Shown: one piece after another, positions 25,383 through 52,430 of the stretch
Layout of the letters: each line of letters starts with the position of its first letter
How positions within the stretch are numbered: the first letter of the stretch is position 1
Assembly: GCA_023248155.1 (NCBI GenBank)
Contig: JAHFFE010000002.1
Location: 42,263-106,262, forward strand
DNA length: 64,000 bases
Direction of reading: 5' to 3'
Source: Candidatus Omnitrophota bacterium
Lineage (GTDB): Bacteria > Omnitrophota > Gorgyraeia > 1-14-0-20-64-10
The notes under the pieces: generated by a model
Seen by the model: the letters and a program-made list of their open reading frames with translations, nothing else
The model's database searches: none
Told to the model about the DNA's origin: nothing
Translations under genes and position numbers: made by a program

Positions 25383-25795
25383 CCATTCTAATCATTGAAG
25401 ATGAAGCGCAGGTCCGTGAATTGCTCGGCCGCCGCCTGCAGGCGCACAGCTACGAAACGCAGGAGGCCGAGAACGGCAAGGTCGGCCTTGAAAAGGCCAA
25501 ACAGCTGAAGCCCGAACTGATCATCCTTGATTTGAATATGCCGGAGATCGACGGAATCCAGGTTTATCAGCGGCTGCGCCAGGATCCGGACACCGCGAAG
25601 ATTCCGGTTCTTTTTCTGACCGCATTGTCGGCCGGTGGAACGATGACCGAGCAAAGCCTGGCGATTATCGCTTCGGCGAAGCACCGTGTGCAGTTGACGG
25701 GAAAATATGCCGTCATGGGTAAACCATATGATGCTCAGCAGCTGTTGGAGACGATCCGAAAACTGCTGGGGCAGGAGAGCGCGCCGGCGGTATGA
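25379..25795 (+). CDS. Single-domain response regulator
   Basis: ATGA overlap with the kinase. ILIIEDEAQ…ILDLNMPEIDG…K. Confidence 0.85.
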   Translation: MTILIIEDEAQVRELLGRRLQAHSYETQEAENGKVGLEKAKQLKPELIILDLNMPEIDGIQVYQRLRQDPDTAKIPVLFLTALSAGGTMTEQSLAIIASAKHRVQLTGKYAVMGKPYDAQQLLETIRKLLGQESAPAV

Positions 25796-27465
25796 AATCG
25801 ACCAAGCAGACCGATGAACGGCTCGTTGAAGAAGGGCTGATTACGCCGGAACAGCTGGCGAAGGCCCGCTCGGAAGCGCTGCGCGGCGGAGGCACCGTGC
25901 GCGAAGCGATCCTGCGAATGCGGTTTGTCGAGCCGTCGCGCATGGCCGACTGGCTCAGCCAGCAGCTGCAGATTCCGCGCGTGGAATTAAAATCGTACGT
26001 GATCGATTCGAAAGTTCTGCAGCTTGTTCCCGAGGCGCTGGCCCGCAAGCATCGCGTCATCCCGTTGTTTAAGGTAGGTAATTCGCTCACCGTTGCCACG
26101 GCCGATCCGCTGAATTTAATCGCGCTCGACGAACTGCATTTGAAAACCGCCAAAACGATCGAACCGGTTGTCGCCACCGATCAGGAAATTAATCAGGCGC
26201 TGGCCGATTATTACGGCACGAAAGGGCGCGTCGATGAGCTGGTGTCGGGGATGCCGGCCGAGACCGCCGCGGCGGAACTTCCTTCCGGCGCCGCTGCCGC
26301 GCAGAAAGCGTCGGACCCGCCTGTGGTGCAGCTGGTTAATCTGCTGCTCACCGACGCGGCCCGTTACCGCGCGTCAGATATTCACCTGGAACCCGAGCAT
26401 GAGGGGATGCGCGTCCGGTTCCGCATCGACGGAATTTTGCGCGAACAAACGGTGCTGCCCAAATCGCTGGAGCCGGCCGTTGTTTCGCGCATCAAGATTC
26501 TTGCCGGCATGGACATTGCCGACCAGCGCAAACCGCAGGACGGCCGTTTCCGGACGACGCTGGAAGGGCACGAGGTCGATCTGCGTATTTCGGTGATTCC
26601 GTCGATGGACGGAGAAACGGTCGTGATGCGTTTGCTGGATACGCAGGGCTTGCGCCTCGACATGAGCCAGCTGGGCATGGATGCCGACATGTTGGCACGC
26701 TACCAGCAGCTGGTTCAGCGCGCCTGGGGAATTTTGCTGGTGACCGGTCCGACCGGTTCCGGAAAAACGACGACACTGTATTCGACGCTGGCGTCGCTCA
26801 ATGCCGTCGAGCGCAACATCGTCACGATTGAAGATCCAGTCGAATATCGTTTGTCCGGCATCCGGCAGATTCAGGTGAATTCATCCGTGCAGCTGACGTT
26901 CGCCACCGGCTTGCGTTCGATTTTGCGTCAGGACCCCAACATCATCATGGTCGGAGAAATCCGTGACCGCGAAACGGCCGAGATCGCGATTCAATCGGCG
27001 TTGACGGGTCATATGGTTTTCTCGACGCTGCATACCAATGACGCGGCCACCGCCATTACACGGCTGCTCGACATGGGCATCGAGCCGTTCCTGGTCAGTT
27101 CCAGCTTGATCGGCGTGTTGGCCCAGCGGCTGGTGCGCACACTTTGTCCCGAATGCAAAACCGACGATCCGGCGCAGGAAGAAAAAGCGCGCAAGATGGG
27201 GTTCACCGGGACGGGTCACTGGATGAAAGCGGCCGGCTGCCGCCAATGCGGAAAAACCGGATACCGCGGCCGGATCGCGCTGTTTGAGCTGATGCCGATG
27301 GATGAAACGATTCAGAAAATGACGCTGGCCAAAACGTCGGCGTCCGATATCGCCACGCACGCGCATTCCGCCGGCATGAAAGCGCTGCGCGAAGACGGGC
27401 TGGCCAAGGCGGCGGCCGGAATCACGACGATCGACGAGGTGTTCCGCGTCGTCTCGGAGGCGTAA
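25792..27465 (+). CDS. Type IV pilus/T2SS assembly ATPase (GspE/PilB family)
   Basis: GspE N-terminal domain, Walker A VTGPTGSGKTTTLYS, Asp and His boxes, tetracysteine CPEC…CRQC zinc motif. Confidence 0.9.
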   Translation: MKSTKQTDERLVEEGLITPEQLAKARSEALRGGGTVREAILRMRFVEPSRMADWLSQQLQIPRVELKSYVIDSKVLQLVPEALARKHRVIPLFKVGNSLTVATADPLNLIALDELHLKTAKTIEPVVATDQEINQALADYYGTKGRVDELVSGMPAETAAAELPSGAAAAQKASDPPVVQLVNLLLTDAARYRASDIHLEPEHEGMRVRFRIDGILREQTVLPKSLEPAVVSRIKILAGMDIADQRKPQDGRFRTTLEGHEVDLRISVIPSMDGETVVMRLLDTQGLRLDMSQLGMDADMLARYQQLVQRAWGILLVTGPTGSGKTTTLYSTLASLNAVERNIVTIEDPVEYRLSGIRQIQVNSSVQLTFATGLRSILRQDPNIIMVGEIRDRETAEIAIQSALTGHMVFSTLHTNDAATAITRLLDMGIEPFLVSSSLIGVLAQRLVRTLCPECKTDDPAQEEKARKMGFTGTGHWMKAAGCRQCGKTGYRGRIALFELMPMDETIQKMTLAKTSASDIATHAHSAGMKALREDGLAKAAAGITTIDEVFRVVSEA

Positions 27466-27469
27466 ACCG

Positions 27470-28699
27470 ATGCCGACGTTTGCGTATCAGGCGCGCGATG
27501 AAGCGGGGCGGCTGGTGAAAGGGTTTCAGGAGGCGGAATCCCAGACTCTGCTGCTGCAGCAATTGCGCAAGGCCGGTTATTTAATCACGCGGCTGGAAGA
27601 AAAGACACAACAGAGTACGAGCTGGCTGCCTGACCTTCAGTTTGGAAAAAGGGTCGACGGGCAGGACCTGCTGATGGCTATTTTACAGCTGGCGAATCTG
27701 GTCGAGGCCGGACTTCCGCTGTTAACGGCGCTCAATACCGTTTGCGAGCAGTGGGCCGACGGTCCGCTGAAAGAGGCGCTCAGCGCCGTCGTGCGCGACA
27801 TTGAATCGGGCGAGAAATTTTCGCAGGCGCTCAAAAAGCATCCGCATATTTTCCCGAAATTAATGGTGAGCATGGTGATGGTCGGCGAGCAGACCGGAAA
27901 ATTGGACCTGGTGCTGATGCGGTTCTCGTCGTTTCTCGAACGGGACATGGCCGAACGCAGGGCGCTTCAGTCGGCTCTGAGTTATCCGATTTTGCTGTTT
28001 TGCGCCAGCATCGTGCTGGTGCTTTTCGTGGTGACGTTTGTGGTGCCGCAGTTTTCCGAGTTGTTCGTCAAGGCCGGCGTGCGGATGCCGGCGCCCACGC
28101 TCTTTTTATGCGGCGTCGGAAAATCGATCCGGCAATACTGGTGGCTCATGATTCTTTCGGTGCCGGCGGCCGGGGTTGGGGTTCCTCTGCTGATGCGCCG
28201 TCCCGATGTTCGCGCGTTCTGCGACCGATGGATTCTGAAAGTTCCGATATTCGGGAAGGTGATTTATCAGACGGTCATCCTGCGTTTCGCGCGCAGCCTG
28301 GCCACGCTGGTGGCCAGCGGCATCTCGATTTTGAGCGCGCTGGATACCGCCCGGGAAATGGTCGACAACCAGATGATCGAAGCCGAGCTCAAGCGCGTGC
28401 GCAGCGCCGTCGAGCGCGGCGAGAAACTGTCGGCGGCGCTGGCTGCCGGGAAAATTTTTCATCCCGACGTGGTGCAGATGGTCAAGGCCGGCGAAGAATC
28501 CGGCCGCATGGACGCGATGCTCGACAAGGTCGCCGATTTTTATGAGATGCGCGTTAATTTTTCATTGAAACAAATGGTTACTTTTCTGGAACCGCTTTTA
28601 TTAATGGGGATGGGAGGCATCGTCGTTTTAATTATGGCGTCTTTGATCTTGCCGATGTTTGATATGGTCAAGGTCTTACAAAATGGAGGGTTACGCTGA
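27470..28699 (+). CDS. Type IV pilus/T2SS inner-membrane platform protein (GspF/PilC)
   Basis: Two T2SSF repeats, three TM segments. ATGA overlap with the following gene. Confidence 0.85.
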   Translation: MPTFAYQARDEAGRLVKGFQEAESQTLLLQQLRKAGYLITRLEEKTQQSTSWLPDLQFGKRVDGQDLLMAILQLANLVEAGLPLLTALNTVCEQWADGPLKEALSAVVRDIESGEKFSQALKKHPHIFPKLMVSMVMVGEQTGKLDLVLMRFSSFLERDMAERRALQSALSYPILLFCASIVLVLFVVTFVVPQFSELFVKAGVRMPAPTLFLCGVGKSIRQYWWLMILSVPAAGVGVPLLMRRPDVRAFCDRWILKVPIFGKVIYQTVILRFARSLATLVASGISILSALDTAREMVDNQMIEAELKRVRSAVERGEKLSAALAAGKIFHPDVVQMVKAGEESGRMDAMLDKVADFYEMRVNFSLKQMVTFLEPLLLMGMGGIVVLIMASLILPMFDMVKVLQNGGLR

Positions 28700-29172
28700 T
28701 GAAAATGAGGCAACGTAAAATAAGCAAAGGGTTCACGCTGGTCGAGTTGATCATCGTGATCGCCGTGATCGCGATTTTGCTGGGCATCGCGCTTCCGCGG
28801 CTGCGCGGCATGATTGACGAAGGCAACTCCGCCCGCGCCGCTGCCGAAGTCCGCGCGCTGCAGGCGGCAGTCGAGTCTTTCTTTATCCATAACGCCCGCG
28901 TTTATCCGGCGGCCGGCGCGACCTGGGAAAACGCGTTAGTGGCCGCGAGCCCGCGGCTGATTGGCGCCGCGCTGCTCGATCCGTTTAACGGGGCTGTTCA
29001 ATATCAGTACGCGCTATCGGCCAACGGCCAGTTTTATGTAATCTCGTCGTTCGGCCCCAACAGGGCTGCAACGATTATCGGCATTGATAACACCGGCGCG
29101 GTCACTCCTGCGGGAGCTACCGGAGACGATATCTTCAGCTCGAACGGCACTCCGGGTAACGGCGGGTTTTAA
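28699..29172 (+). CDS. GspG-like major (pseudo)pilin with prepilin peptidase site
   Basis: KGFTLVELIIVIAVIAILLGIALP N-methylation motif. AAAEVRALQAAVESFFIHNARVYP resembles the GspG alpha-beta loop. Confidence 0.8.
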   Translation: MKMRQRKISKGFTLVELIIVIAVIAILLGIALPRLRGMIDEGNSARAAAEVRALQAAVESFFIHNARVYPAAGATWENALVAASPRLIGAALLDPFNGAVQYQYALSANGQFYVISSFGPNRAATIIGIDNTGAVTPAGATGDDIFSSNGTPGNGGF

Positions 29173-30153
29173 TTGGTAGTGGAGTTACTGCGAGGGAAGG
29201 GACGGCTCCAGCTGGTGCTTGGGGCCGTCCTGACCTGCGGCGTGGGGATCGCGTTGTCAATGGCCGCGCTGATGGTGCCCGAGCGTTTTGATGCCTGGCG
29301 CATCTACGCGTTCGGCGTGGGCGTTATTTTTTTCATGCTGGCCTATCTGATTTCCAGCTTTCGGCACGCTTCTAAAATCGAAACACTGGTTCTTGAACGG
29401 ACCGCTGAGTTGCAGGCGGCCAACCTGCGTCTGCTTGAGTTGGGAAAAATCAAGGATGAATTTGTCGCGGTGGTCAGCCATGAACTGCGCACGCCGATCG
29501 CCGTGATGCGCGAGGGGATCTGCCAGATGCAGGAAGGGGTTTGCGGTCCGATTACTCTGGAACAGCAGGCAACCATCGCGATCACATTAAGAAATCTCGA
29601 GCGGCTGCGCGAGCTGGTTGAGGATATGCTCGATATTTCCAAAATTGAAGCGGGAAAAATTGTTTTACAGCATGAAAAATTCGATTTTATTCAACTGGTT
29701 CGGGAAATCCAGAATTCTTTTTTGCCCCGTTCGCGCGAGAAAGAGATCGGCCTTGAATTGCATTTGCCGGGGCCGCATCTCTGGGTCCGGGCCGACCGCG
29801 CGAAACTGGCGCAGGTATTAACGAACCTGGTCAGCAACGCCATAAAGTTTACCGATCAGGGCGAGGTGCGCGTGACCGTGGAAGAGGACGCGCAACAGAT
29901 CCGGTGCGCGGTCTCCGACAGCGGCATCGGCATTTCGGACGAGAACATGCCCAAGCTGTTCCAGAAATTCCAGCAGTTTACGCGTCTCAGCAACGGTGAA
30001 AAAGGCAGCGGTCTGGGCCTGGCCATCTGCAGGGGGTTAATCGATCTGCATCAGGGCCGTCTCTGGGCCGAGTCGTCTTACGGAAAAGGAAGCCGTTTTA
30101 TTTTCAGCATCCCCAAGGGGGAAAACAGGGAGCCGTCCGCCGCCATCCGATGA
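29173..30153 (+). CDS. Membrane-anchored histidine kinase (2 TM, no periplasmic sensor domain)
   Basis: TTG start directly after the pilin stop (ATG 29260 is an alternative). H-box VSHELRTPIA, G1 DSGIGI, G2 GSGLGL. Confidence 0.75.
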   Translation: MVVELLRGKGRLQLVLGAVLTCGVGIALSMAALMVPERFDAWRIYAFGVGVIFFMLAYLISSFRHASKIETLVLERTAELQAANLRLLELGKIKDEFVAVVSHELRTPIAVMREGICQMQEGVCGPITLEQQATIAITLRNLERLRELVEDMLDISKIEAGKIVLQHEKFDFIQLVREIQNSFLPRSREKEIGLELHLPGPHLWVRADRAKLAQVLTNLVSNAIKFTDQGEVRVTVEEDAQQIRCAVSDSGIGISDENMPKLFQKFQQFTRLSNGEKGSGLGLAICRGLIDLHQGRLWAESSYGKGSRFIFSIPKGENREPSAAIR

Positions 30154-31274
30154 ACGAGTCGCCATTTGCCGTCAATCCGTTTTCGCGGGAAATCCGCGTT
30201 TTGCTGATCGAAAACGACCTGGCTGAAGTCCGCCGATTTAAAGAAGTACTCTCCGAGGCGGGAGAGAAATTATTTCCGGTCACCTGGGCCGATCGTATGG
30301 CCGAGGGTTTGAGCCGTATTTCGGGAGATTCCGTTGATCTGATCGCGCTTGGGCTTTCTCTGCCTGACTCGTCAGGAGCGGATCTGTTCGCGCGCGTCCA
30401 CGCGCAGGCGTCGCATCTGCCGATCGTGCTGCTGGTATCGGCCGCGCAGGAAACAGAAGCCCAGCAGGCCGTTCTGGCTGGCGCACAGGATTATCTAATC
30501 AGGGGAAAATGGGAATCGTCGGTTCTTCCGCGCGTATTGCGTTACGCGGTGGAGCGCAAAGCGGTCGAGCGGATGAAAGACGAATTCGTCAGCAGTGTTT
30601 CGCACGAATTGCGCACGCCGCTGGCGATCGTCAAGGAAGGCGTCAGCCTGGTTCTCGACGGAGTTTCCGGTCCGCTTACCGCCGACCAGGATAAAATCCT
30701 GAAAGTCGCCCAGGACAACATCGACCGGCTCGCGCGTATTATCGAGAACCTGCTGGATGTTTCGGAACTGGACCGCGGCCGCATGAAGCTGAAGATTCAG
30801 CCGATCGATATTTTTGATCTGATCCGAAAAAAAGCCGAACAGCTGGCGCCAAAAATCCGCGAGAAGGGCATCGAATTTTCAGTGCAGATCCCTTCTGAAA
30901 AAAAGATGATGGAAGCCGATCCGATCCGCGTCGAACAAATATTAACCAGCCTTTTGGGCAATGCGTTGAAATTCACACGTAAAGGTTCCATCGTGCTGTC
31001 GGTGACCGAAGAACCGGACCGTTTAATCTGCCAAATATCCGATACCGGCATCGGCATTGCGCGCGAAGATCTGCCTAAAATTTTCCGCCGGTTCCAGCAG
31101 TTTGGGCGCAAAGACGGCCCCGGCGAGCAGGGGACCGGGCTGGGACTGTGGCTTTCGCAGCAGTTTATCGAGCTTCATGGAGGATCGGTCTGGGTTGAGA
31201 GCGAACAGGGCCGCGGCACGCGCGTTTTCTTTTCGCTTCCGAAGCCGGTTGTTCCGGCGGTAGAACCGGCATGA
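30150..31274 (+). CDS. Hybrid receiver-histidine kinase (REC + HisKA + HATPase_c)
   Basis: N-terminal receiver (VLLIENDLAE…DLIALGLSLPDS…), then H-box VSHELRTPLA and DTGIGI/GTGLGL boxes. Confidence 0.8.
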   Translation: MNESPFAVNPFSREIRVLLIENDLAEVRRFKEVLSEAGEKLFPVTWADRMAEGLSRISGDSVDLIALGLSLPDSSGADLFARVHAQASHLPIVLLVSAAQETEAQQAVLAGAQDYLIRGKWESSVLPRVLRYAVERKAVERMKDEFVSSVSHELRTPLAIVKEGVSLVLDGVSGPLTADQDKILKVAQDNIDRLARIIENLLDVSELDRGRMKLKIQPIDIFDLIRKKAEQLAPKIREKGIEFSVQIPSEKKMMEADPIRVEQILTSLLGNALKFTRKGSIVLSVTEEPDRLICQISDTGIGIAREDLPKIFRRFQQFGRKDGPGEQGTGLGLWLSQQFIELHGGSVWVESEQGRGTRVFFSLPKPVVPAVEPA

Positions 31275-31663
31275 AAATCCGTCGGAATGCCGGTGGTTTT
31301 ACGCTGCTCGAGATGCTGATCGCGCTGGGCATTTTAATGACGGGTGTTCTTGCGACGGTCTACCTGGTAAGCCGCGGCATTGCCGCGACGAATGATACCG
31401 AGTCCACCGAGCAGGCGCTGGCATTGGCGCAGCAGCGGATGGAAGCGCTTCGCTCGGGCGCTTATGCCGCGATTGTCAACGAACCGCGTGCCGCCGTGGC
31501 CGGCTGGGTTAATTTCGACCGCCAGGTGGTTGTAGCACAGCCGGCCGGTACCGGTGTGAGCAATCAGATTCGCCAGGTCACCGTTACGGTATTTTGGCCG
31601 ACGACCGGCGGCGAGCAGAACCTGACATTAACCACCTATGTCTGCAATGTCGTCAATAACTAG
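31271..31663 (+). CDS. Minor pseudopilin (prepilin-type N-terminal domain)
   Basis: GGFTLLEMLIALGILMTGVL. Confidence 0.75.
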   Translation: MKIRRNAGGFTLLEMLIALGILMTGVLATVYLVSRGIAATNDTESTEQALALAQQRMEALRSGAYAAIVNEPRAAVAGWVNFDRQVVVAQPAGTGVSNQIRQVTVTVFWPTTGGEQNLTLTTYVCNVVNN

Positions 31664-32180
31664 GCGGTCGCGCGGCGTCAGTCTGCTTGAATTGATTTTG
31701 GCGGTTGGTCTTTTTTCTGTACTGCTGATTGCGCTGTTCGGTGTTTACCGGATCATTTTTATCTCGACCACGTCGGTTCAGGACCGGATGCAGCTGCAGC
31801 GGAGCGCCGAGCATGGCCTTGAAAAAGCGATCCGCGATTTGCGTACCGCGGTGGCGCTGCAGAACGATCCGAGCAACGCGATCCGGTACACGCTTCAACA
31901 GGGCGCTGCGCAGAATTCGTTTATTTTATATCTCTACAACGCGGCCGACCCGTTTCTGCCGCCTTACACGCAGCCGACGTATGAACTTCGGCAGGCGCCC
32001 GTCGCCGGCGCGATTGGCGGCGCGTTTGTGTATGGCGCCGGCACGCTGTTGGTGCGCGATGTTCAGCCGCCGCCGGCATCGGTTATTCAGGTTGCCGGAA
32101 CATTGGCAACGCTGGATCTCAGCGTGACGCGGGGAAACGAAACTTACCGTCTGGTTAAACAGGTCAGGCGCAGAAGTTGA
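31638..32180 (+). CDS. Minor pseudopilin (prepilin-type N-terminal domain)
   Basis: RGVSLLELILAVGLFSVLLIAL; overlaps the preceding gene. Confidence 0.65.
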   Translation: MSAMSSITRRSRGVSLLELILAVGLFSVLLIALFGVYRIIFISTTSVQDRMQLQRSAEHGLEKAIRDLRTAVALQNDPSNAIRYTLQQGAAQNSFILYLYNAADPFLPPYTQPTYELRQAPVAGAIGGAFVYGAGTLLVRDVQPPPASVIQVAGTLATLDLSVTRGNETYRLVKQVRRRS

Positions 32181-33073
32181 TGCGCGCCTCTGCGCAGCGC
32201 GGAGTGGCGCTGGTGATGGTGATGGCTTTTTTGATTCTGTTCGCGACGATGGCGACATTTTTTGTTTTCACGGCCTCTGTTTTCGTAAAGAACAGCGGCT
32301 GGGAGCAGGTGGACCACCAGGTATTCTGGATTGCGGAGGCCGGTTTGCAAAAAGCGATTTGGAATTTGAAAACGCCGGTTGCCAGCGGTGGGCGGGGTGA
32401 GCTCTGGACAACGGCTGGAACTCTGGAAAATTTGGCCAATGGGAACTATACGATGGTGGTTGAGGCCTGGGATTACGCACTTGCCGCCAATGGGGCCACT
32501 GCGGTGTCCGTACCACCCACTGTTGTCAATCCCGCTTCTAATGCGATTGATGGCAACGGCGCTACTTTCTGGGAGTCCAGTGGATCACCTGTAATCACTC
32601 AACAAGATTTAATCATCACACTGCCTTATGCGATTACCGTGAATCGGTTGCGGTTCTTAGCGTTTAGTACTCCAGCGTTTCCACAAAACTACATTCCGCG
32701 GGATTATAGTTGGGCTGTTTCCCCAGACAACGCGGTTTGGACGCCTGCTTTACCCGCGATTACCAACAACACCAGTGCTGACAGTGATCTTGCCGTTCCA
32801 CCGGCTTTAGCTGTGGGCGGGCCGGCGGATGTTTTTCCCGCTCAGACGAATGTGCGGTTTGTCCGTTTGCGGACGACGCGGGATGGTGTCGGGGCTCCCG
32901 CGCGCGCGCGTGTCATTGCTCTGGAGATCAACGGCCGGCGGATTACTTCCACGGGCCGGATTACGACCGGCGGGGTTACCATTGCCAGGACTGTCCGCCA
33001 AACGGTTGTCACCGACGACGCGCTTCCTCAAAATCAAGTGGCTTATTACCAGCCCGACTGGACGGAGCAGTAG
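32177..33073 (+). CDS. GspK/PilX-like minor pseudopilin carrying a discoidin (F5/8 type C)-like domain
   Basis: RGVALVMVMAFLILFATMA leader region. Central NAIDGNGATFWESSG…QDLIITL…YSWAVSPDNAVW matches the discoidin-domain pattern. Confidence 0.6.
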   Translation: MMRASAQRGVALVMVMAFLILFATMATFFVFTASVFVKNSGWEQVDHQVFWIAEAGLQKAIWNLKTPVASGGRGELWTTAGTLENLANGNYTMVVEAWDYALAANGATAVSVPPTVVNPASNAIDGNGATFWESSGSPVITQQDLIITLPYAITVNRLRFLAFSTPAFPQNYIPRDYSWAVSPDNAVWTPALPAITNNTSADSDLAVPPALAVGGPADVFPAQTNVRFVRLRTTRDGVGAPARARVIALEINGRRITSTGRITTGGVTIARTVRQTVVTDDALPQNQVAYYQPDWTEQ

Positions 33074-33075
33074 CG

Positions 33076-34653
33076 ATGGCCGAACGAATTTTAGCGCTTG
33101 ATCTGGGAACCGAATCGTTCAAACTGCTGACGGCTGAGGAGCAGGCTGGTTCATGGGTCATCACGCATCTGGGTTCCAAAGAGATTCCTCCCGGCGCCAA
33201 TGACGCGATTCGTCTGCAGGCCTTAAAAGAATTAATCGGCGAGATTCAGTTAAAACAATTCCGCACCGTCGTCAGCGTGCTGGACGATTCTTTTTCATCT
33301 GTGCGCCAGATTTACACGCCGCCGATACCGGCATCGGAACTGCTTTCAGCGGTCCGCTGGGAAATGCAGAATTTTCTGGCGATCCCTCCGGAAGAAACGG
33401 CGGTTGATTTAATTTCTTTGGGCACGGTTGATTTAGGCGGCGTTACCAAACAGAGGCATATCGCGGCGGCGGTCTCCGTCGAGGCGGTCCGCAATCATTG
33501 CGCGCTGCTGGCGTCGGCCGGCATTCGTCCGTCGCAACTGATCCCGAAAAATTTAGCGCTCGCTCTCTGCGCCGAAAAGCTACAGCCGTCTTCGGCCGAT
33601 CTGCCCCGCGTTATTTTGGATATCGGGTCGTCTTCGGCCGAATGCGTCGTGCAGGAAGGGCTGTGGCCGGTGTTTGCGCGCAGAATTCCCGGCGGATCGC
33701 AGGGGCTGACGCGCGAGATGAGCGGCATGATCGTTTCGGGCCAGGGGCAGGTGGCGCTTACGGCCGATGAAGCCGAACAGTTAAAACGCCGCGTCGGGAT
33801 CCCTTCAAGGGACGCCGGAGACCTGGGCGTCAAAGGGATTTCCGGCATGCAGCTTTTTTCGCTGATGCGCGCCTGGCTGGACCGCCTGGCCGTTGAAACC
33901 GAACGCTCGGTCACTTTTTATGGTGAGACTTCCGGCCGCAATGCCGTTGCCGAAATTATTCTGCTGGGCGGCGGCGCCCATCTGCGCGGATTGCCCGAAT
34001 GGCTCTCGGAACGGCTCGGGGTCCGCGTGAGCGTTCCGGCCGGATTAACGGGTGATCAGGCCGTTTTCGGAAAATTTCCGTCTGTCCGGGGCGTGGAATG
34101 CGCTTACGCGGCCGTTCTGGGTGCTGTTTACGGCGAAGGCAAAGGCCTGAATCTTTTACCGGCTGAAATACGCGAAAAAACAAAACGGACGGTTCAACGG
34201 ATGGCGGCCGCGGCGCTGGGCGCCGCTTTCGCGGTGGCGCTGATCGTCGGCGGCGTAGGCTTGCGATTGTATCAGCGTAATTTACGGGGACAGATCGCCG
34301 CGATGGAAATCGAAGCCGCTTCGACTAACCAGCGCTGGGCTGATTTAAAAGAATATTTGTCGGCCCGGAACCGCATTATCTCCGAACCGCGCTGGCGTGA
34401 TTTTTTAATGGAGTTAAGCCAAGCGACCCCCGCTCAAATAAAGCTCTCTTCGTTGACAGTGGATGAAACCCGCCAGGTCACGCTGCGCGGAGTTATTCAT
34501 GCCGGGCCGCGCTCCGTGCAAGATCTGATGGCCGATTATTTGCGCGTGCTGCATGGCCGCTCATTAACTCAGGTCGAATTGCGACGGACCCGCCGTACGG
34601 ATAATGATTCGGCTGAGGCGGAGTTTGAAATCGGAGGCCGCTTACTGCCATGA
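33076..34653 (+). CDS. PilM-PilN fusion protein (actin-like ATPase + bitopic N component)
   Basis: N-terminal ILALDLGTESFKLL (PilM/FtsA-like). Internal TM (AAAALGAAFAVALIVGGVGL) followed by a PilN-like coiled coil. Confidence 0.7.
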   Translation: MAERILALDLGTESFKLLTAEEQAGSWVITHLGSKEIPPGANDAIRLQALKELIGEIQLKQFRTVVSVLDDSFSSVRQIYTPPIPASELLSAVRWEMQNFLAIPPEETAVDLISLGTVDLGGVTKQRHIAAAVSVEAVRNHCALLASAGIRPSQLIPKNLALALCAEKLQPSSADLPRVILDIGSSSAECVVQEGLWPVFARRIPGGSQGLTREMSGMIVSGQGQVALTADEAEQLKRRVGIPSRDAGDLGVKGISGMQLFSLMRAWLDRLAVETERSVTFYGETSGRNAVAEIILLGGGAHLRGLPEWLSERLGVRVSVPAGLTGDQAVFGKFPSVRGVECAYAAVLGAVYGEGKGLNLLPAEIREKTKRTVQRMAAAALGAAFAVALIVGGVGLRLYQRNLRGQIAAMEIEAASTNQRWADLKEYLSARNRIISEPRWRDFLMELSQATPAQIKLSSLTVDETRQVTLRGVIHAGPRSVQDLMADYLRVLHGRSLTQVELRRTRRTDNDSAEAEFEIGGRLLP

Positions 34654-35159
34654 AACTTAAAAACCCGAAGCCGGCCGCCGCCGCGGGTCTTATTTTTTCC
34701 ATACTGATTCTGGTGATCGGTTATCTGCTGCCTGCGGCCGACATTCAGGCTCTATTGCGCCAGAAAAAACAGATTCAAATGACCGTGGATCAAGCAACTG
34801 ACGCCGTCCGTCCCGCGCGCGGTTCTGAATTCCGTGAACTGCCTTTACAAGAAGAAACTCCGGAGTTGTTTAAGCGTTTTTACCGGCTGGCTGAACGGCA
34901 CCGGGTTCGCGTGATGGAGTTCTCGCCGCGCATCGTTTTGCCCGGAACGGCCGATCAACCGGCCGTTCTTCCCATCGATATTCAGATGGAGGCCGCTTAT
35001 TCCGACGCGGGAGACTTTATCGGAAAGCTGACGACGGATCCGGAAATGGGGATTGTTTCCGTCCGCCGAATCGATATGGTTCCCGATGGCGAAAATAACG
35101 GACAGCTGCGGCTGTCCGTCGTGGTAGAGTTTTGTTTGAAAGCCGATAGCAATGCGTGA
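34650..35159 (+). CDS. PilO/GspM-like bitopic protein
   Basis: N-terminal TM, coiled coil, ferredoxin-like C-terminal part. Position directly after pilMN. Confidence 0.5.
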   Translation: MKLKNPKPAAAAGLIFSILILVIGYLLPAADIQALLRQKKQIQMTVDQATDAVRPARGSEFRELPLQEETPELFKRFYRLAERHRVRVMEFSPRIVLPGTADQPAVLPIDIQMEAAYSDAGDFIGKLTTDPEMGIVSVRRIDMVPDGENNGQLRLSVVVEFCLKADSNA

Positions 35160-35610
35160 TCCAAAACAAAAAATTATCCTGACGGTTTTAGGGATTGTGC
35201 TCGTCGTGGTTTGGACGCGGGCGTTCATGATGAAGCCGGTCTATCGCCATAATCCGCCGCCGGTTTCTTTTCATGCCTCCGGCAGGGTTGTTGCGCCCCG
35301 GCCTTTAGCCAAAGAATCGCCGGATGAAGAACCGCCTGTCCTGAGATGGAAACGTGATCCGTTCGCTGTTTCCGAGATAGTACTGTCTTCCGGGCCGGAG
35401 AAATCAACTTTGTCGTCGGGGGCCAATGCAAAGCCGGCCGCCCCTCTGCGCCTGGAGGGGATTTTATGGGATGCCCGCAAACCGGCCGCGCTGATTAATG
35501 ACACGCTGGTTGAGGTCGGTTCTTCCGTGGGCGGCTGGAAAGTGGTTGAAATCAGGGAAGACCGCGTGAGTCTTTCCGATGGACAATCCACCCAAACTCT
35601 TGAAATCTAG
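35152..35610 (+). CDS. PilP/GspC-like protein
   Basis: N-terminal TM, Pro-rich linker. C-terminal LRLEGILWDARKPAALINDTLVEVGSSVGGWKVVEIREDRVSL matches the PilP/GspC HR-domain pattern. Confidence 0.5.
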   Translation: MRDPKQKIILTVLGIVLVVVWTRAFMMKPVYRHNPPPVSFHASGRVVAPRPLAKESPDEEPPVLRWKRDPFAVSEIVLSSGPEKSTLSSGANAKPAAPLRLEGILWDARKPAALINDTLVEVGSSVGGWKVVEIREDRVSLSDGQSTQTLEI

Positions 35611-40528: not shown

Positions 40529-41926
40529 TTAATTACCGGCGCCGGTATTGCGCGCCAGTGCGAAGAACGATTCGGCCACATCTTCGGCCACCTGCCCGTT
40601 GCGGATCAAATCCATGATGGAACGCTCCAGCGTGTACATCTTGGCGTTTCCACCGGTTTCAATCACGGAAGGCAGCTGGGAAAGAGTGCCGTTGCGGATA
40701 ATGTTCCGGCCGGCCGAGGTGGGCACGAATACCTCGGTGGCGAGTGCCAGCCCGCCCTCAAGCGCTTGTTCGCGCGGAATCAGGTACTGCGTCAAGACTC
40801 CCTGAAGACAGCTGGCCAGCTGGAAGGTTGCTTGCTGGCGCTGTTCCGGCGAGCAAATAGTCGCGAACCGGTCGATCGCCTGCACGGTGTTGGTGGCGTG
40901 GAACGACGCGAGCACCAGCGTGCCGGTTTCAGCCGCGTTGAGAACTACCTGCGCCGTTTCAGCGTCATCGACCTCACCGACGACAATGACATCGGGGTCC
41001 TGCCGCAGCGCGCGGCGCACGGCCTCGGCGAATGACAGCGTATCGGAACCCACCTCGCGCTGTTTGATCACCGCTTTTTTGTTTTGGTGAATATATTCAA
41101 TCGGCCGCTCCAGGCAGATGACGATGGCATCGCGATCTTCGTTGATCTGTTCCACCAGGCTGTTGAGCGTCGTTGTTTTTCCGGACCCCGTCGGGCCAAC
41201 CACCAGAATCAGGCCGCTGTTTTTGCGCGTCCAGTCAATGACTACCGACGGAAGCCCCAGTTTTTCCCAATGGGTTACTTTCGCCGGGATACTGCGGATT
41301 GCTGTCTCGACCTGGCCGCGCTGCCAATGCACATTCAGGCGGAACCGTTGCGTGACCGAGATCGAGTAGGCCAGATCCATCTCCCGCTGTTTCTCAAACA
41401 TGCAGATCTGCTCATCGGACATGACACTATAGACCAGCGAACGGATCTCGCCGGGTTTCAAAATTGGAAACTTCATCGGCTTGAGCCGTCCGCGCACGCG
41501 CGCGATCGGCGGGCTGTTCGTGGTTAAATGCAGGTCGGAACCGCCCATTTTGATTAATTCTTCCAGCAGGTTGCGGATATCCATCGTTTCCAGCCGCTGC
41601 AAGATTTCGATGGCGCTGGAAGGATCGATTCTTTCGAACTGCAGGCCAAGCCAATATTTTTGCGCCGGGATTTTTTCTTCCACGCGAATGACGCGGCAGT
41701 TGGCCAGCAATGTTTGATTGTACCCGGGAACATGCAGCTGCAACCGTATCGCCGCGCCGATTTCCACAGGGGAAGCGGTGTTAATGAGCGCGCCGGTTGA
41801 GCTGACATTAACGGTGGTGGAGGGAAGCAGTACTCCGAAAGGAGCACCGTCTTTCAGCAGCTGATACGCTGCCACATAGGCCAGTTGGGCGCGATACGCG
41901 CGCGATGTTTCAGTAGTGTTCGCCAT
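40529..41926 (-). CDS. PilZ-domain/PilT-family retraction ATPase fusion
   Basis: N-terminal ~110 aa contain RAYRA (RxxxR) and NVSSTG ((D/N)xSxxG) c-di-GMP-binding PilZ motifs. C-terminal part is PilT-like (Walker A VVGPTGSGKTTTL, Asp box, His box). Confidence 0.75.
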   Translation of the reverse strand: MANTTETSRAYRAQLAYVAAYQLLKDGAPFGVLLPSTTVNVSSTGALINTASPVEIGAAIRLQLHVPGYNQTLLANCRVIRVEEKIPAQKYWLGLQFERIDPSSAIEILQRLETMDIRNLLEELIKMGGSDLHLTTNSPPIARVRGRLKPMKFPILKPGEIRSLVYSVMSDEQICMFEKQREMDLAYSISVTQRFRLNVHWQRGQVETAIRSIPAKVTHWEKLGLPSVVIDWTRKNSGLILVVGPTGSGKTTTLNSLVEQINEDRDAIVICLERPIEYIHQNKKAVIKQREVGSDTLSFAEAVRRALRQDPDVIVVGEVDDAETAQVVLNAAETGTLVLASFHATNTVQAIDRFATICSPEQRQQATFQLASCLQGVLTQYLIPREQALEGGLALATEVFVPTSAGRNIIRNGTLSQLPSVIETGGNAKMYTLERSIMDLIRNGQVAEDVAESFFALARNTGAGN

Positions 41927-42003: not shown

Positions 42004-43446
42004 TTAGCTTGAATAGGTGATAACCACCCGCCCGACGGCGCCGTTATTGGATCCGGACGGAGATCGGGCAAACCAGCCGCATCCTCCGCCTCCGGGAGCT
42101 ACGCCGTCTGTTCCGATAAAGCGTGAACTGTTCAATTCACCAACGCTTCCGGCGCCACCATTTCCTCCGCTTCCTCCCGCCCGTTGGTATAATGTAAAAA
42201 ACGGCGCTATGGCATCCTGGCCCGAAATATTAAATGTTGCCGTACTGGTTCCGCCTCGTCCTACAATAGCTCCTTCAATTCCTCCAGAGCTTCCGCCTCT
42301 TCCGCCTGTAGCGCTAACAGCAGGGGGAACATTCAGTCCTGTTACGGAGGAGGTGCCGCCGTTGCCTCCGGTATTTGAATTTGTTTTCTGACCTGTTCCT
42401 CCGGCACCGACCGTGATGGTCAAAACGGCTCCAGGTGTTACCGTCGCGAGTTGTCTGCCGTAACCTCCACCTCCACCTCCGTGACCAAACTGAGCGCCGC
42501 CAGCGTTGGGGCTTCCGCCACCGCCACCTCCACCTCCCCAAACTTCAACTGTGACTCCTGTTACTCCGGCCGGTACAGTCCAGTTCGTTGCTCCGGCTGT
42601 GCCAAATACCACTTGCGTTGTCAGGCCTACGCTTCCGCTTACGGAGGCTAAAATAGTAGTCCATGCTGTTCCGTTGTAGAGATTTAATTGGTTCGTAGTG
42701 GTGTTGTAAATTATCAGCCCGGCTACTGGACCGGCAATCGCGTTCCGCTCGGCCGTGATCATTCGAGGAGGGAGAAACCCCTTTGTCGTAGAAGTCAGAT
42801 CCAATGCCGCCGATGCGGCCGGCGCCGCCGTTCCGATCCCCACATTCCCGCCCAGAGGGTTCAACACCAGGTTTCGGAAAGCCACATTCTGTGACTCCGC
42901 TTGAATGTAGCCGGTATTGGTAAAGTTGGTGCTGTCGTAATCCCGGTTGAACCCCAGCGCTAGGCCTCCATTCCCCGCAGCGAGGCTCGGCGTGTTCAGA
43001 TAAATGCCGCTTTGCCCGTTCGCTGAAATCCGCGCCCCGCTGGCCCCAGCTACATCCAACGCGTAAGCGGGGGCCGCCGTCCCAATCCCAACCCGTATTC
43101 CCGGAGTTCCCGGCACTCCAGCGTTGTCTGCTCCAGACGAGAAAATGACATTACTGATGGCGTCATCGGCCCCCACCACATGCAGCGGTCCCTGCGGGTT
43201 GGTAGTCCCGATACCCACTGGACCTACGATGAACGCCGCGCCATTGTTTAGAGGAGGGGTTGGCGTTGCCTCAAAATCGGTTCCGACCGTTAAGCTTTGG
43301 AGATGTTGATTGCCTGTGTTGGACGAAGAGGGGTAGTAGGTGACCAGTTCGACGGTTTCCGCCCACGCGTAACCGGCGAGGATGCCAATGATGAGGAATA
43401 AAAACAATGCGTTGCCGCTGGAAAACCTGCTTTTAATTTTTATCAA
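42004..43446 (-). CDS. Secreted glycine-rich protein with tail-fibre-like repeat motifs
   Basis: Signal peptide. Repeated VGIGTTNPQGPLHV, NVGIGTAAP…LDL and KGFLPPRMT…YNGTAW motifs reminiscent of phage tail-fibre/collar modules. C-terminal GGGGGGG-rich region. Confidence 0.5.
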   Translation of the reverse strand: MIKIKSRFSSGNALFLFLIIGILAGYAWAETVELVTYYPSSSNTGNQHLQSLTVGTDFEATPTPPLNNGAAFIVGPVGIGTTNPQGPLHVVGADDAISNVIFSSGADNAGVPGTPGIRVGIGTAAPAYALDVAGASGARISANGQSGIYLNTPSLAAGNGGLALGFNRDYDSTNFTNTGYIQAESQNVAFRNLVLNPLGGNVGIGTAAPAASAALDLTSTTKGFLPPRMITAERNAIAGPVAGLIIYNTTTNQLNLYNGTAWTTILASVSGSVGLTTQVVFGTAGATNWTVPAGVTGVTVEVWGGGGGGGGSPNAGGAQFGHGGGGGGYGRQLATVTPGAVLTITVGAGGTGQKTNSNTGGNGGTSSVTGLNVPPAVSATGGRGGSSGGIEGAIVGRGGTSTATFNISGQDAIAPFFTLYQRAGGSGGNGGAGSVGELNSSRFIGTDGVAPGGGGCGWFARSPSGSNNGAVGRVVITYSS

Positions 43447-43522
43447 ACAATCTCCCTGTTCGAATAAGTATACCCGATAAAAACGAGTATGAACAGCGGC
43501 GGTTGACAGCGTGAATTAGAGC

Positions 43523-44056: not shown

Positions 44057-44641
44057 ATGAGTGACGCGGAGCTGGTTGAACAAGCGCGTGCCGGAGACCG
44101 GCAGGCATTTGATCAACTGATGCAACGCTATGAGCGCGAAATGATCGGCGTGGCCTATCGAATGCTGGGCCACTCCGAAGACGCGGTCGATTTGGCACAG
44201 GAGGTGTTCTTGCGCGCCTGGCGCGGGCTCGGCCAGTTTCGCGGCGAAGCGTCGTTTCGCAGCTGGCTTTACCGGATCGCGCTCAATCTGGCGCGCAACA
44301 AACGCCGGTGGTACGCGCGCCATCGGATTGCTTCGATGGTTTCATTAAGCCCGTCCGACGAAGAGACCGAAGAAGGGGACCCTGCGCCGGTTGTACCGAT
44401 CGCTGACCCCTCGACGGATCCGCGTGCCGAGGCGCAGGCGAGTCAGTTTCAGGAAGCGGTGCGGCAGGCGTTGGAAAAACTTCCGGCGGAATTTCGGGAA
44501 ACGGTGATATTAAGGGATATTCAACAGTTGTCGTATGAGGAAGTCGCGCAAGCGACCGGACAACCGGTTGGAACGGTCCGGTCGCGGTTATCCCGCGGCC
44601 GGCATTTGCTGCGGGAAGCGTTAAAAGGAATTTATCCATGA
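44057..44641 (+). CDS. ECF (group IV) sigma-70 factor
   Basis: Region 2 (…DLAQEVFLRAWRGLGQFRG…SWLYRIALNLARN) and region 4 HTH (LSYEEVAQATGQPVGTVRSRLSRGR). Confidence 0.9.
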   Translation: MSDAELVEQARAGDRQAFDQLMQRYEREMIGVAYRMLGHSEDAVDLAQEVFLRAWRGLGQFRGEASFRSWLYRIALNLARNKRRWYARHRIASMVSLSPSDEETEEGDPAPVVPIADPSTDPRAEAQASQFQEAVRQALEKLPAEFRETVILRDIQQLSYEEVAQATGQPVGTVRSRLSRGRHLLREALKGIYP

Positions 44642-45591
44642 ACTGTCAGCAGTGCAGCGAACATCTTTCGGCGTACCTTGACGGACTGCTGTCGGCCTCT
44701 GAGCGGCAGGCGCTGGAGAGCCATTGCGCCGGCTGCGCCCGGTGCGCGGCGGAACTCGCCGATCTTCAGAAAATCCTGATAGCGCTTCCTCAATTGCCGC
44801 AGCCGCCGGTTCCGGAAAATTTCCGCCGCCGTGTCTGGTCTGAGATCGACCGGAAAGGACGGCCGCTCGATTCCTGGCTCATTAAATTGCCGGTAGGCGC
44901 TTTGGCGACGGCGGCCGTTATTTTATTGGTCGCGCGGGTTTCGCAAGATACCATGCCGCAAATGAAGGAACAGGCCGTGCTTTCCGATGTTGCCGCTGCT
45001 CGTTTTGCCGAGCCGACTATGCGACAGCAGAAGGCAGCTCCGCTTGCTGAACAAGAAGAATCAGTATCTGCAAAGGTCATTAATCAAGATAAAAACAAAA
45101 TGGAGTTAAAAGACAAAGCCGATCGATCCGAAGAAACATTGGGAAAATCCCAATCGGTTTCAGCGGCCGCGTCGCCTCAATTAGCGCCGCAACAAAACAG
45201 GGCTTCTATGAAAATGTTGGAAACGGAAGATGGAGAACTTGTTTCTGGGAGGAAAATGTCCGCCGATAGTTCTTCGGCAGCCAGCTTGGTTGCCGATGGT
45301 TTGGAAGATAAAAAATCCAGTTTCGATTCTGCTTATGGCGAATCTGAGCGATGGTTTTTAAGAGTAGAAGATCCATCGGCTACGCAGGTTTTGGTTAGGC
45401 ATATCCTCCAAGAAATGAATGCTTTCAATATTCGGTCGATTTCGCCCTACATAACCGAATTTCAGGTCTCGTTCGGCCAACGCGATTCTTTAAAACAGTA
45501 TTTAAATGAACTGGGCGATCTTCAGCAAGTATCTTCGGAAGATTCCACAATCGAAACAATAACCATTATTGTTCTCCAGCGAACATCGTAA
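44638..45591 (+). CDS. Zinc-binding (ZAS-type) anti-sigma factor, single TM, periplasmic C-terminal domain
   Basis: ATGA overlap with the sigma gene. CQQC…HCAGCARC HxxxCxxC-type motif. TM at PVGALATAAVILLVA. Confidence 0.75.
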   Translation: MNCQQCSEHLSAYLDGLLSASERQALESHCAGCARCAAELADLQKILIALPQLPQPPVPENFRRRVWSEIDRKGRPLDSWLIKLPVGALATAAVILLVARVSQDTMPQMKEQAVLSDVAAARFAEPTMRQQKAAPLAEQEESVSAKVINQDKNKMELKDKADRSEETLGKSQSVSAAASPQLAPQQNRASMKMLETEDGELVSGRKMSADSSSAASLVADGLEDKKSSFDSAYGESERWFLRVEDPSATQVLVRHILQEMNAFNIRSISPYITEFQVSFGQRDSLKQYLNELGDLQQVSSEDSTIETITIIVLQRTS

Positions 45592-45598
45592 ATTTTTG

Positions 45599-45624
45599 GG
45601 AACTTTTTCTTCCGCCCGGTGTCT
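45599..45624 (+). promoter_or_regulatory. ECF-type promoter P2 (GGAAC-N17-GTCT) before the precursor-MNIO operon
   Basis: GGAAC at 45599-603, GTCT at 45621-24. About 55 nt including the 5' UTR and GGGAGG Shine-Dalgarno are nearly identical to P3. Confidence 0.6.
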
Positions 45625-45653
45625 GCATCAGTAGAAAAGGGAGGAATAAACCA

Positions 45654-45863
45654 ATGAAAATTCCAGCGTCAGTGTTAGCGGTCATGTTGGTTGGATTGGG
45701 AAGCGTCGGCGTGATGGGCTGTGCCGCGCACCAGACTCCGACTGAAAAAGCACCCAAAAATAAACCGGACTCTGTTGAGCCGGCTGCCAACCCCCAACCC
45801 GAAACACCGAATCGCCCGAGTCGTTCTGCCGGTTATGAGTGTCGTGCCTGCGGAATGGGATAA
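45654..45863 (+). CDS. 69-aa secreted/lipobox peptide with C-terminal YECRACGMG; candidate RiPP precursor
   Basis: MKIPASVLAVMLVGLGSVGVMG|C signal + lipobox. Pro/Glu-rich linker, C-terminal CxxC. Immediately upstream of the DUF692 gene and behind the GGGAGG Shine-Dalgarno of P2. Confidence 0.55.
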   Translation: MKIPASVLAVMLVGLGSVGVMGCAAHQTPTEKAPKNKPDSVEPAANPQPETPNRPSRSAGYECRACGMG

Positions 45864-45865
45864 AA

Positions 45866-46738
45866 ATGGGGATTCCTCTCGTAGGGCTGTCGTTAATGCC
45901 GGAGGACCCCTTTCGTCAGGCGGCCTACCCTCTTTTTGAAGCGGGGGAAGTCGATGTTCTGGAATGGAGTTTTGATATGGGGTGGGCCGGCGCTCCGTTG
46001 CCTGAATGGATGGAGCAACTGCTCCATCTTTATGGGCAGCGGGGCCGCCTGCTGGGGCATGGAGTTTCATTTTCGCTCTTGTCCGGACAGTGGACCGACC
46101 GCCATCAGAGGTGGCTGCAATTATTATCGGAAGAAGCCACTCGCCACCGGTACCGGCATATCTCCGAACATTATGGATTTATGACGGCCGGAACTTACCA
46201 GAAAGGGGCTCCATTACCGGTCCCCAAAACTCCCGATACAGTTCGTCTCGGGCAGGACCGGTTGCGCCGGCTGGCCGAAGCGGCCGGATGTCCGGTCGGG
46301 CTGGAAAATCTGGCGTTTGCGTTTGGCGCTCATGATGTTTGGGATCAAGGTTCTTTTTTGGAAGAACTGCTGGAATCAGTGGATGGCTTTCTTCTGCTCG
46401 ATCTTCATAATCTCTACTGCCAGTCGGTAAATTTCAAAGCGCCTTGGACTGAATTAGTCGCGCAATACCCGCTCCATCGCGTTCGGGAGCTGCATCTTTC
46501 AGGCGGGTCCTGGTTCGCCGGTGAGCCGTCTTCCCGCTATGAACCGATCCGGCGCGATACGCACGATGGCGCTGTGCCCGAGGAACTTTTCGCTATGCTG
46601 CAGTCCATTTTGAAACGGGCTCCGGCGGTTGAAGCGGTAATTCTCGAACAGCTGGGCGATTCATTAGAGAGCGACGAATCGAAGGTTCGATTCCAGGCCG
46701 ATTACCGGAAAATTCGGGCGATTGTCCATGGACAATAA
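45866..46738 (+). CDS. DUF692 / MNIO (multinuclear non-haem iron oxidative) enzyme, MbnB/TglH/BufB-like
   Basis: Start at ATG 45866 (MGIPLVGLSL…), 3 nt after the peptide stop. HGVSFSL, SEHYGF, PVGLENLAFAF, LLLDLHNLYCQSVNF, VRELHLSGG and RRDTHDG match the conserved DUF692 TIM-barrel blocks. Confidence 0.8.
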   Translation: MGIPLVGLSLMPEDPFRQAAYPLFEAGEVDVLEWSFDMGWAGAPLPEWMEQLLHLYGQRGRLLGHGVSFSLLSGQWTDRHQRWLQLLSEEATRHRYRHISEHYGFMTAGTYQKGAPLPVPKTPDTVRLGQDRLRRLAEAAGCPVGLENLAFAFGAHDVWDQGSFLEELLESVDGFLLLDLHNLYCQSVNFKAPWTELVAQYPLHRVRELHLSGGSWFAGEPSSRYEPIRRDTHDGAVPEELFAMLQSILKRAPAVEAVILEQLGDSLESDESKVRFQADYRKIRAIVHGQ

Positions 46739-52251: not shown

Positions 52252-52335
52252 TGCCGAGGGAGAGAATCGAACTCTCATGGGGTTGCCCCCGCAGGTTTTT
52301 GAGACCTGTGCGTCTACCGATTTCGCCACCTCGGC
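52252..52335 (-). tRNA. tRNA-Leu (anticodon CAA)
   Basis: Minus-strand cloverleaf GCCGAGG…CUCAAAA…long variable arm…GAGAG-UUCGAUU-CUCUC…CCUCGGC-A. CCA is not encoded. Confidence 0.85.
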
Positions 52336-52357
52336 GGGAGAATGAAGAGAAAATTTA

Positions 52358-52430
<73 letters not shown>

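Follow-up and report, generated by a model that had tools for sequence, protein, structure and literature searches.

We analysed a 64,000-nucleotide window of contig JAHFFE010000002.1 from a Candidatus Omnitrophota bacterium, in which a complete open reading frame (ORF) at 42004-43446 on the minus strand encodes a 480-residue protein, hereafter the fibre, that combines a predicted export signal with parts related to phage tail fibres. The ORF begins with TTG and ends with a stop codon at 42004-42006. A Shine-Dalgarno-like AGGGAGA was read from the sequence at 43451-43457 on the same strand, 4 nt 5' of the TTG, and fibre homologues have a start codon at the equivalent position. A database protein (P0001) that sits on an NCBI contig of 350,776 bp is identical to the fibre. 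The initial annotation had described a signal peptide, repeated VGIGT motifs, and a glycine-rich C-terminus, and all of these are present in the ORF. Residues 1-29 (43360-43446, minus strand) were read as a Sec-type signal peptide; by eye, the N-terminus MIKIKSRFSSGNALFLFLIIGILAGYAWA, followed by ETVEL, has a basic n-region, a hydrophobic core, and an AxA site, with cleavage predicted between AWA and E, and the same layout is found in all full-length relatives of the fibre. The protein is rich in Gly, Ala, Thr, and Ser, poor in Cys, and low in charge, with glycine making up 20% of the whole and 30.3% of residues 283-480. A scan against NCBIfam returned zero matches. On the basis of the results described below, the gene very probably encodes a protein that is exported, belongs to no phage, and is homologous to phage fibre tips.

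The glycine-rich tip and its phage and cellular relatives

Residues 283-478 (42013-42600, minus strand) scored 48.9 bits (E 1.1e-12) for the Pfam family Gly_rich_2 (PF21722), whose gathering cut-off is 24.3, the alignment covering profile positions 2-225 of 226. This putative ligand-binding tip, in which the WGGGGGGGGSPNAGG glycine run begins at W303, was predicted to form a TNF-like beta-sandwich with glycine-rich extended segments. An AlphaFold2 monomer model, for which a family alignment of 23 sequences (A1) served as input, was confident over residues ∼220-480, with predicted local distance difference test (pLDDT) values mostly of 85-98, and its tip shares the beta-sandwich and glycine-rich segment fold of the structurally characterised members of Gly_rich_2. 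In this model the glycine stretches belong to a folded domain, as its conserved core, and do not form a low-complexity tail. What had been annotated as a poly-Gly ending is accordingly a Gly_rich_2 domain, predicted to be folded, and the strongest fibre homology lies there rather than in the VGIGT and LPPRM motifs that had first drawn attention.

The homology of this tip to phage fibres was evident from profiles and from structures. The PHROG family phrog_863 (category tail, label "tail fiber assembly") matched residues 153-473 with an E value of 5e-25, and the sequence profile of the fibre family reached the Pam3 fibre (E 4e-7) and Bxb1 gp33 (E 8.6e-3). A phmmer search of the PDB sequences with the single fibre sequence gave zero matches; the link to these solved structures was made solely by the family profile and by fold searches. 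Among predicted viral structures, 157 matched at E ≤ 1e-3, including annotated tail fibres, minor tail proteins, and collagen-like fibre proteins of giant viruses. The initial suggestion of fibre homology, which a profile and structure check could have overturned, came through that check, and the exported protein that had been likened to a phage tail fibre is a true homologue of phage tail-fibre parts. One viral relative could be placed in its own genome: IMG/VR contig L073 is a genuine phage with major head, virion structural, and lytic tail proteins, and it encodes a 312-residue fibre whose tip is the same (176 residues aligned at 39% identity, E 2e-8). The N-terminus of that fibre is of the classic phage kind; phage homologues begin with motifs such as MADTTTTNLxLTKPEVG...W, unlike the window protein.

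The closest structural comparison is with gp24 of cyanophage Pam3 (PDB 7YPX / 7YFW), whose tip is homologous to that of the window protein by both fold and profile. Pam3 gp24 is a trimeric fibre with a distal TNF-like plus glycine-rich unit described as the recogniser of the host receptor; the ends of the distal loops were proposed as receptor-binding sites, a likeness to S16 gp38 and ALK was noted, and the stacked glycine-rich extended segments form flat lattices (PMC9608196). The two proteins differ outside the tip. The phage-encoded gp24 lacks a signal peptide, docks to the baseplate by an alpha-helical bundle, and needs the chaperone gp25, whereas the window protein has a signal peptide, an N-terminal TYYPS handle, VGIGT repeats, a PTL_trimer block, and a cellular context. 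Mycobacteriophage Bxb1 gp33 ("tail wing brush") and gp29 (tail spike), both in PDB 9D93, are actinophage virion parts whose N-terminal architecture is likewise not shared with the window protein.

The same domain also occurs on proteins of cells. RemZ of Flavobacterium johnsoniae, a secreted cell-surface protein, has at its N-terminus, over chain residues 3-198, a homologue of the Gly-rich domain (profile E 2.4e-14) and is a cellular precedent for the Gly-rich domain on an adhesin-type protein. RemZ differs in having 1,114 residues, in using a type IX secretion system (T9SS) for its export, through a C-terminal domain (CTD), and in placing the Gly-rich domain, which was not resolved in its structure, at the N-terminus, whereas that of the window protein is C-terminal; the fibre gave no Pfam or NCBIfam match to a T9SS CTD, and it ends inside the Gly-rich domain (...GRVVITYSS). 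The TNF-like plus glycine-rich "TG" unit in the ectodomain of ALK and LTK (for example PDB 7LIR, 7LS0, 7NX3) resembles the window tip far more weakly than the phage tips do, and it belongs to metazoan receptor tyrosine kinases with no fibre context. In Bacteroidota (L005-L053; for example L025 745-6939, L042 7845-12212, and L030 7857-9299) the Gly-rich domain usually follows directly after the signal peptide, as in RemZ, in proteins of up to ∼2,500 residues, a polarity opposite to the C-terminal tip of the Omnitrophota and phage fibres.

The stalk and a lineage-restricted handle

The motif VGIGT occurs three times in the fibre, at V77, V119, and V202, and each copy continues as xxPxxxL(H/D)V. 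From the composition of the protein 0.008 copies would be expected, and at least one copy arose in just 0.8% of 200,000 shuffles. The first stalk repeat (residues 77-90, VGIGTTNPQGPLHV, 43177-43218, minus strand) has T81, P84, and L88 invariant in a family alignment (A2); the second (residues 119-132, VGIGTAAPAYALDV, 43051-43092, minus strand) and the third (residues 202-217, VGIGTAAPAASAALDL, 42796-42843, minus strand), both read from the sequence, have the same motif, and the third runs into the block that follows. That block, GFLPPRMITAERNAI...LIIYNTTTNQLNLYNGTAW (GFLPPRMI...LYNGTAW), spans residues 223-263. The initial annotation had given it as LPPRM...YNGTAW; the block is there, although the residue after LPPRM is isoleucine and not the threonine that was reported. 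Its description as a short tail-fibre or collar module did not hold: the block is the Pfam family PTL_trimer (PF26696), for which a precomputed match (E ≤ 1e-5) is recorded for the identical protein P0001, and no collar or short-tail-fibre family was matched, whereas a different family member, P0259, does have a collar-like tip. Two phage families of unknown function (PHROGs 1325 and 25721) matched residues 217-278, over the same block, and in the AlphaFold2 model it has pLDDT values of 77-93 and consists of a short helix and three strands. The third VGIGT copy and the PTL_trimer block together (about residues 199-268, 42643-42852, minus strand, boundaries approximate) form a putative trimerisation node.

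These parts are widespread. An exhaustive HMMER search of 1.84 billion representatives gave 31,361 proteins at E ≤ 1e-3, of which 190 also passed E ≤ 1e-30; query residues 195-275, containing VGIGT and PTL_trimer, were the usual best-matching and most widely matched stretch, and giant proteins contained multiple separate matching stretches, up to 11 per protein. Because of these results, we regard VGIGT/PTL and the related parts as common, reusable modules. PTL_trimer and Gly_rich_2 are both catalogued Pfam families with thousands of members, and their pairing recurs among many database proteins; literature searches on the two families found nothing. Trimeric beta-helix fibres have a capping loop with the consensus V-G-G/N-pi-X-X-P-X-X-X-L (PMC10769870). 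The VGIGTxxPxxxL repeat lies near this consensus of the Bdellovibrio mosaic adhesive trimer (MAT) fibres and the S74 phage fibres but is offset by one residue.

Ahead of the stalk, the mature protein would begin with a short segment (residues 30-55, ETVELVTYYPSSSNTGNQHLQSLTVG, 43282-43359, minus strand) that we call the handle and propose as the base or anchor of the fibre. It is conserved in two alignments: A29, E30, Y37, and Y38 are invariant in A2, with T36 and P39 nearly so, and TYYP is invariant in the 50-sequence alignment A3. Every close full-length relative has a signal peptide followed by AE(T/D/K)(V/I/L)(E/T)L(V/T)TYYP(S/T) and then VGIGT repeats, and the consensus of the handle, directly after the signal peptide, is E-x-(I/L)-(T/E)-L-x-TYYPSP-x-G-x-Y-x-(E/Q)-L. 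A profile search with the handle gave 118 proteins (P0393-P0510), a count that is not the size of the family, as only proteins of ∼175 residues or less were returned and many are probably fragments from short contigs; the named ones were almost all from Omnitrophota, with one from Elusimicrobia. Some handle-bearers are apparently complete small secreted proteins of 113-172 residues with Cys-rich ends, encoded on long contigs. The handle was absent from 49 of 49 genome loci and 32 of 32 viral loci outside this group that carry the Gly-rich tip, and no Pfam or NCBIfam model covers it. The handle family is undescribed in the literature searched.

On this constant front end the tips differ. The window gene joins the shared handle and stalk to PTL_trimer and the Gly-rich tip; P0259 joins them to PTL_trimer and a tail-collar-like domain (...FNLPDLRSR...); P0019 joins them to an S74 intramolecular chaperone (...SDRRLKKNI...; PF13884 on record); and P0008, P0015, P0016, and P0017 have other beta-rich tips. 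Peptidase_S74 itself gave no Pfam match at E ≤ 1 in the window fibre, and it is the S74 domain of P0019 that ties the family to the trimeric beta-helix/S74 fibre class. Tandem paralogs with different tips were found in three loci, with three in L004 (6775-10573), two in L003 (6036-9182), and two in L002 (209-4692). The three fibre genes of L004 follow one another, flanked by chorismate synthase and shikimate kinase, and the L003 paralog at 6036-7307 was left uncalled in the source annotation. In two unrelated Omnitrophota loci, within biosynthetic operons, a handle-bearing gene adjoins a Phd/ParE-type toxin-antitoxin pair (L003 7394-7993; L090 8556-9051; L091 1111-1606), an adjacency suggesting that fibre genes may travel as small cassettes.

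The MAT fibres of Bdellovibrio bacteriovorus, compared here by their published description (PMC10769870), resemble the window protein and its relatives in being cellular and in having a signal peptide, a conserved N-terminal part, stalk motifs near to, though one residue off, the loop consensus, swapped tips, which include S74 and TNF-like domains, and multiple paralogs per genome. They are larger, at ∼1,000 residues with a beta-rich N-terminal domain of ∼130 residues; the window protein has 480 residues, and its conserved N-terminal block is far shorter and bears the TYYPS signature. The two also come from different phyla. Surface display and glycan binding were demonstrated by experiment for the MATs, whereas the Omnitrophota protein is known here from sequence and model. 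The use of phage fibre modules by cells is established for the MATs (PMC10769870), and because of this precedent and of the prior cataloguing of both domains the window fibre is not new in kind.

Genomic surroundings and alternative explanations

Large ORFs across the window were compared with Pfam and PHROG models, and apart from the fibre no phage gene was found among those tested, the others being cellular or unassigned and without a PHROG match; at this level the earlier statement that the window holds no other phage gene is upheld. The cellular genes include a class II ribonucleotide reductase, a cyclophilin, leucyl-tRNA synthetase (LeuRS), AccA, a thiolase, transporters, an extracytoplasmic function (ECF) sigma/anti-sigma pair, and a cluster like those of type IV pili and type II secretion systems (T2SS). 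The best named matches of the LeuRS were all from Omnitrophota (63-71% identity; 64% for Ca. Velamenicoccus archaeovorus), which places the window in this phylum. Two adjacent tRNA genes at 52252-52430 (minus strand), just upstream of and divergent from LeuRS, were the only Rfam matches of the window at the gathering threshold. The fibre gene is flanked by a gene for an Ig_CycH-like protein and by one for a PilT-like T2SSE ATPase with an N-terminal PilZ domain of the type that binds cyclic di-GMP (40529-41926, minus strand); the latter is the next gene, 78 nt downstream. The intergenic gap contains no terminator-like site and a weak promoter-like site.

The pilus/T2SS-like cluster (25792-35610, plus strand) encodes a PilB-like ATPase with MshEN, PilC/T2SSF, two N_methyl pilin-like proteins, PilM, and PilO. 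Two histidine-kinase genes break it up, one of which encodes a hybrid kinase that includes a receiver domain. The cluster further contains, at 32177-33073 and adjoining a pilin-like gene, the gene for a discoidin (F5/8 type C) protein that is possibly a pilus-associated adhesin. At 44057-46738 (plus strand), a 69-residue ORF (45654-45863) comes after the genes for the ECF sigma factor and a zf-HC2 anti-sigma factor; it has a lipoprotein-like signal (...GVMGC) and a C-terminal ...YECRACGMG, and it overlaps the start of an MbnB/TglH/ChrH-family (DUF692) enzyme gene (45839-46738). The arrangement looks like a bufferin-like cluster for a Cys-modified ribosomally synthesised and post-translationally modified peptide with an exported precursor. 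A DUF2207 membrane protein (13635-15374, plus strand) ends in a pure glycine tail (...SGGGGFSGGGGGGGGGGSW), the sole other poly-Gly run among the long ORFs of the window, and is unrelated to the Gly-rich domain of the fibre.

Four other explanations of the fibre gene were weighed. That it is a prophage or tailocin remnant, a leftover tail-fibre gene without a cellular function of its own, seems very improbable. The homology of its tip to phage fibre tips, with the phrog_863 (tail) match above, is what such a remnant would show, and the handle genes beside ParE/Phd pairs in two unrelated loci hint at mobility; however, none of the other large ORFs in the 64 kb matched a phage family, and where a phage fibre has its N-terminal motif (in L073, TTTNLxLTKPxxG...W) the window protein has a Sec signal peptide and the Omnitrophota-conserved handle. 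The ORF is moreover intact with a good ribosome-binding site, and paralogs are kept across genomes in housekeeping contexts. Prophage remnants had been suggested as something to look for around the relatives, but these sit among housekeeping genes: in L003 the neighbours include ribosomal genes and one for a GHMP kinase, in L004 genes of shikimate and chorismate metabolism, in L086 futalosine genes, and in L088 genes of the tricarboxylic acid cycle. Because neither a phage-module context nor a docking N-terminus was found, the window protein lies outside the class of virion fibres.

Those same loci bear on the idea that the fibre is a cargo or tip adhesin of the nearby type IV pilus/T2SS-like machinery that acts with the downstream PilZ-PilT-type ATPase. 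The ATPase gene on the same strand with no terminator-like site between, the PilB/PilC/pilin/PilM/PilO cluster, and the N_methyl prepilin motif of P0066, a relative of the PTL block, speak for it, and a T2SS-type system could supply a way through the outer membrane. The pairing, however, is not kept among the relatives, which lie beside futalosine, tricarboxylic acid cycle, shikimate, or GHMP-kinase genes; a tblastn search of the window with all ORFs from the loci of five relatives matched only the fibre gene, giving no conserved partner of the PilZ-PilT or any other type; the leader is a Sec signal peptide rather than a prepilin one; and the promoter-like site in the gap, though weak, points the same way. 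We consider this explanation unlikely. No more probable than the pilus cargo is a structural envelope protein, whether S-layer, sheath, or matrix fibre, whose role would be to coat the cell and not to recognise a specific partner. Its export, its composition, which is common among surface-layer and matrix proteins, and the multiple paralogs per genome would suit a coat, and an S-layer-type protein was among the initial proposals, but searches of Pfam and NCBIfam (E ≤ 1) found no S-layer homology (SLH), other S-layer, or anchoring domain, the tip fold is used for ligand recognition or adhesion by phages, by ALK/LTK, and probably by RemZ, and the swapping of tips on a constant chassis fits a diversifying recognition better than a lattice. 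The most remote of the four is that the protein binds ice, minerals, or polymers, and not cells, by means of flat polyglycine surfaces. Antifreeze proteins of springtails contain polyglycine-II bundles. The flat lattices of the Pam3 fibre (PMC9608196) also speak for this idea, but the significant PDB fold matches of the tip were TNF-like plus Gly-rich receptor-binding units with no antifreeze bundles among them, and both the architecture of the fibre and the swapping of its tips suggest that cells are what it recognises.

A proposed exported adhesin and its meaning for Omnitrophota

We favour, with moderate confidence, a composite reading in which the window gene encodes an exported homotrimeric surface adhesin with a handle base, a VGIGT/PTL stalk, and TNF-like/polyglycine tips. 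What the analysis shows directly is the ORF and its motifs, the two Pfam memberships, the likeness of the tip in fold and sequence to phage fibre tips of solved structure, as true homologues, a genomic context without phage genes, an origin in Omnitrophota, and the mosaicism of tips on a shared handle. We further infer signal-peptide cleavage, trimerisation, passage through the outer membrane, anchoring by the handle, and the function and ligand of the adhesin. In the mechanism proposed, Sec would export the precursor, with cleavage after AWA (residue 29), and the lineage-restricted handle at the new N-terminus (ETVELVTYYPS...) would fasten the fibre at its base to the cell envelope. Three chains would be joined into a short stalk by the VGIGTxxPxxxL repeats together with the PTL_trimer block, and each chain would end in a TNF-like/polyglycine tip whose ligand would lie on another surface, the most plausible candidate being a glycan or protein of a partner, host, or prey cell. 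With the handle and stalk kept constant, an exchange of tips could then vary the specificity of the lineage. The initial annotation had spoken of a "domesticated" tail-fibre-like adhesin; the fibre homology in that phrase stands, whereas the data do not establish a direction from phage to cell, and the adhesin role is one that we infer.

Several results weigh against this reading. The sequence link to cultured phages is weak and stems from profiles, structures, and metagenomic viral contigs; tblastn searches of 50,697 annotated phage genomes with the whole fibre and with residues 196-300 gave no match, to which the low-complexity masking of glycine runs probably contributed. The handle and stalk were poorly modelled in the monomer (pLDDT <50 over residues 25-218), as one would expect of a single-chain model of an intertwined fibre, and the monomer model of P0412, a small handle-bearing relative, made from a 50-sequence alignment, was extended, with a predicted template modelling score (pTM) of 0.28. 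Since these parts and P0412 model poorly, the trimerisation of the window fibre is proposed from analogy and from the name of the Pfam family. No outer-membrane route, anchoring partner, or conserved accessory gene was identified beside the family, and no fibre-assembly chaperone is evident for the window protein, whereas Pam3 gp24 requires a separate one.

If the composite reading of the fibre as an exported surface adhesin is extended to its relatives, Omnitrophota may own a family of phage-like recognition fibres, in which the handle plugs proteins of ∼110 to >570 residues into a putative envelope anchor and swappable phage-derived tips (Gly-rich, collar-like, S74, and small Cys-rich) set the host or prey that is recognised. 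We offer this extension tentatively and think it rather less likely than the reading of the single gene. If true, the Omnitrophota fibres would be an independent counterpart of the Bdellovibrio MATs, and the window gene would be one determinant of host range. Omnitrophota are widespread, uncultivated, and mostly ultra-small, and have been proposed to be largely host-dependent, and the published proposals on their contact with partners centre on type IV/Tad pili and giant ORFs; fibres or phage-like proteins are unmentioned in the main survey of the phylum (PMC10066038). A compact, expressible fibre with a confidently modelled tip is a concrete reagent, in that a labelled tip could fish the partner organism or the ligand from environmental samples, and the shared handle, as a simple sequence signature, would allow the whole set of fibres in the phylum to be catalogued. 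The fibre also presents the TNF-like/polyglycine tip, common to ALK/LTK, in yet another architecture, and through it one more phylum would join those whose bacteria employ phage receptor-binding modules at the cell surface.

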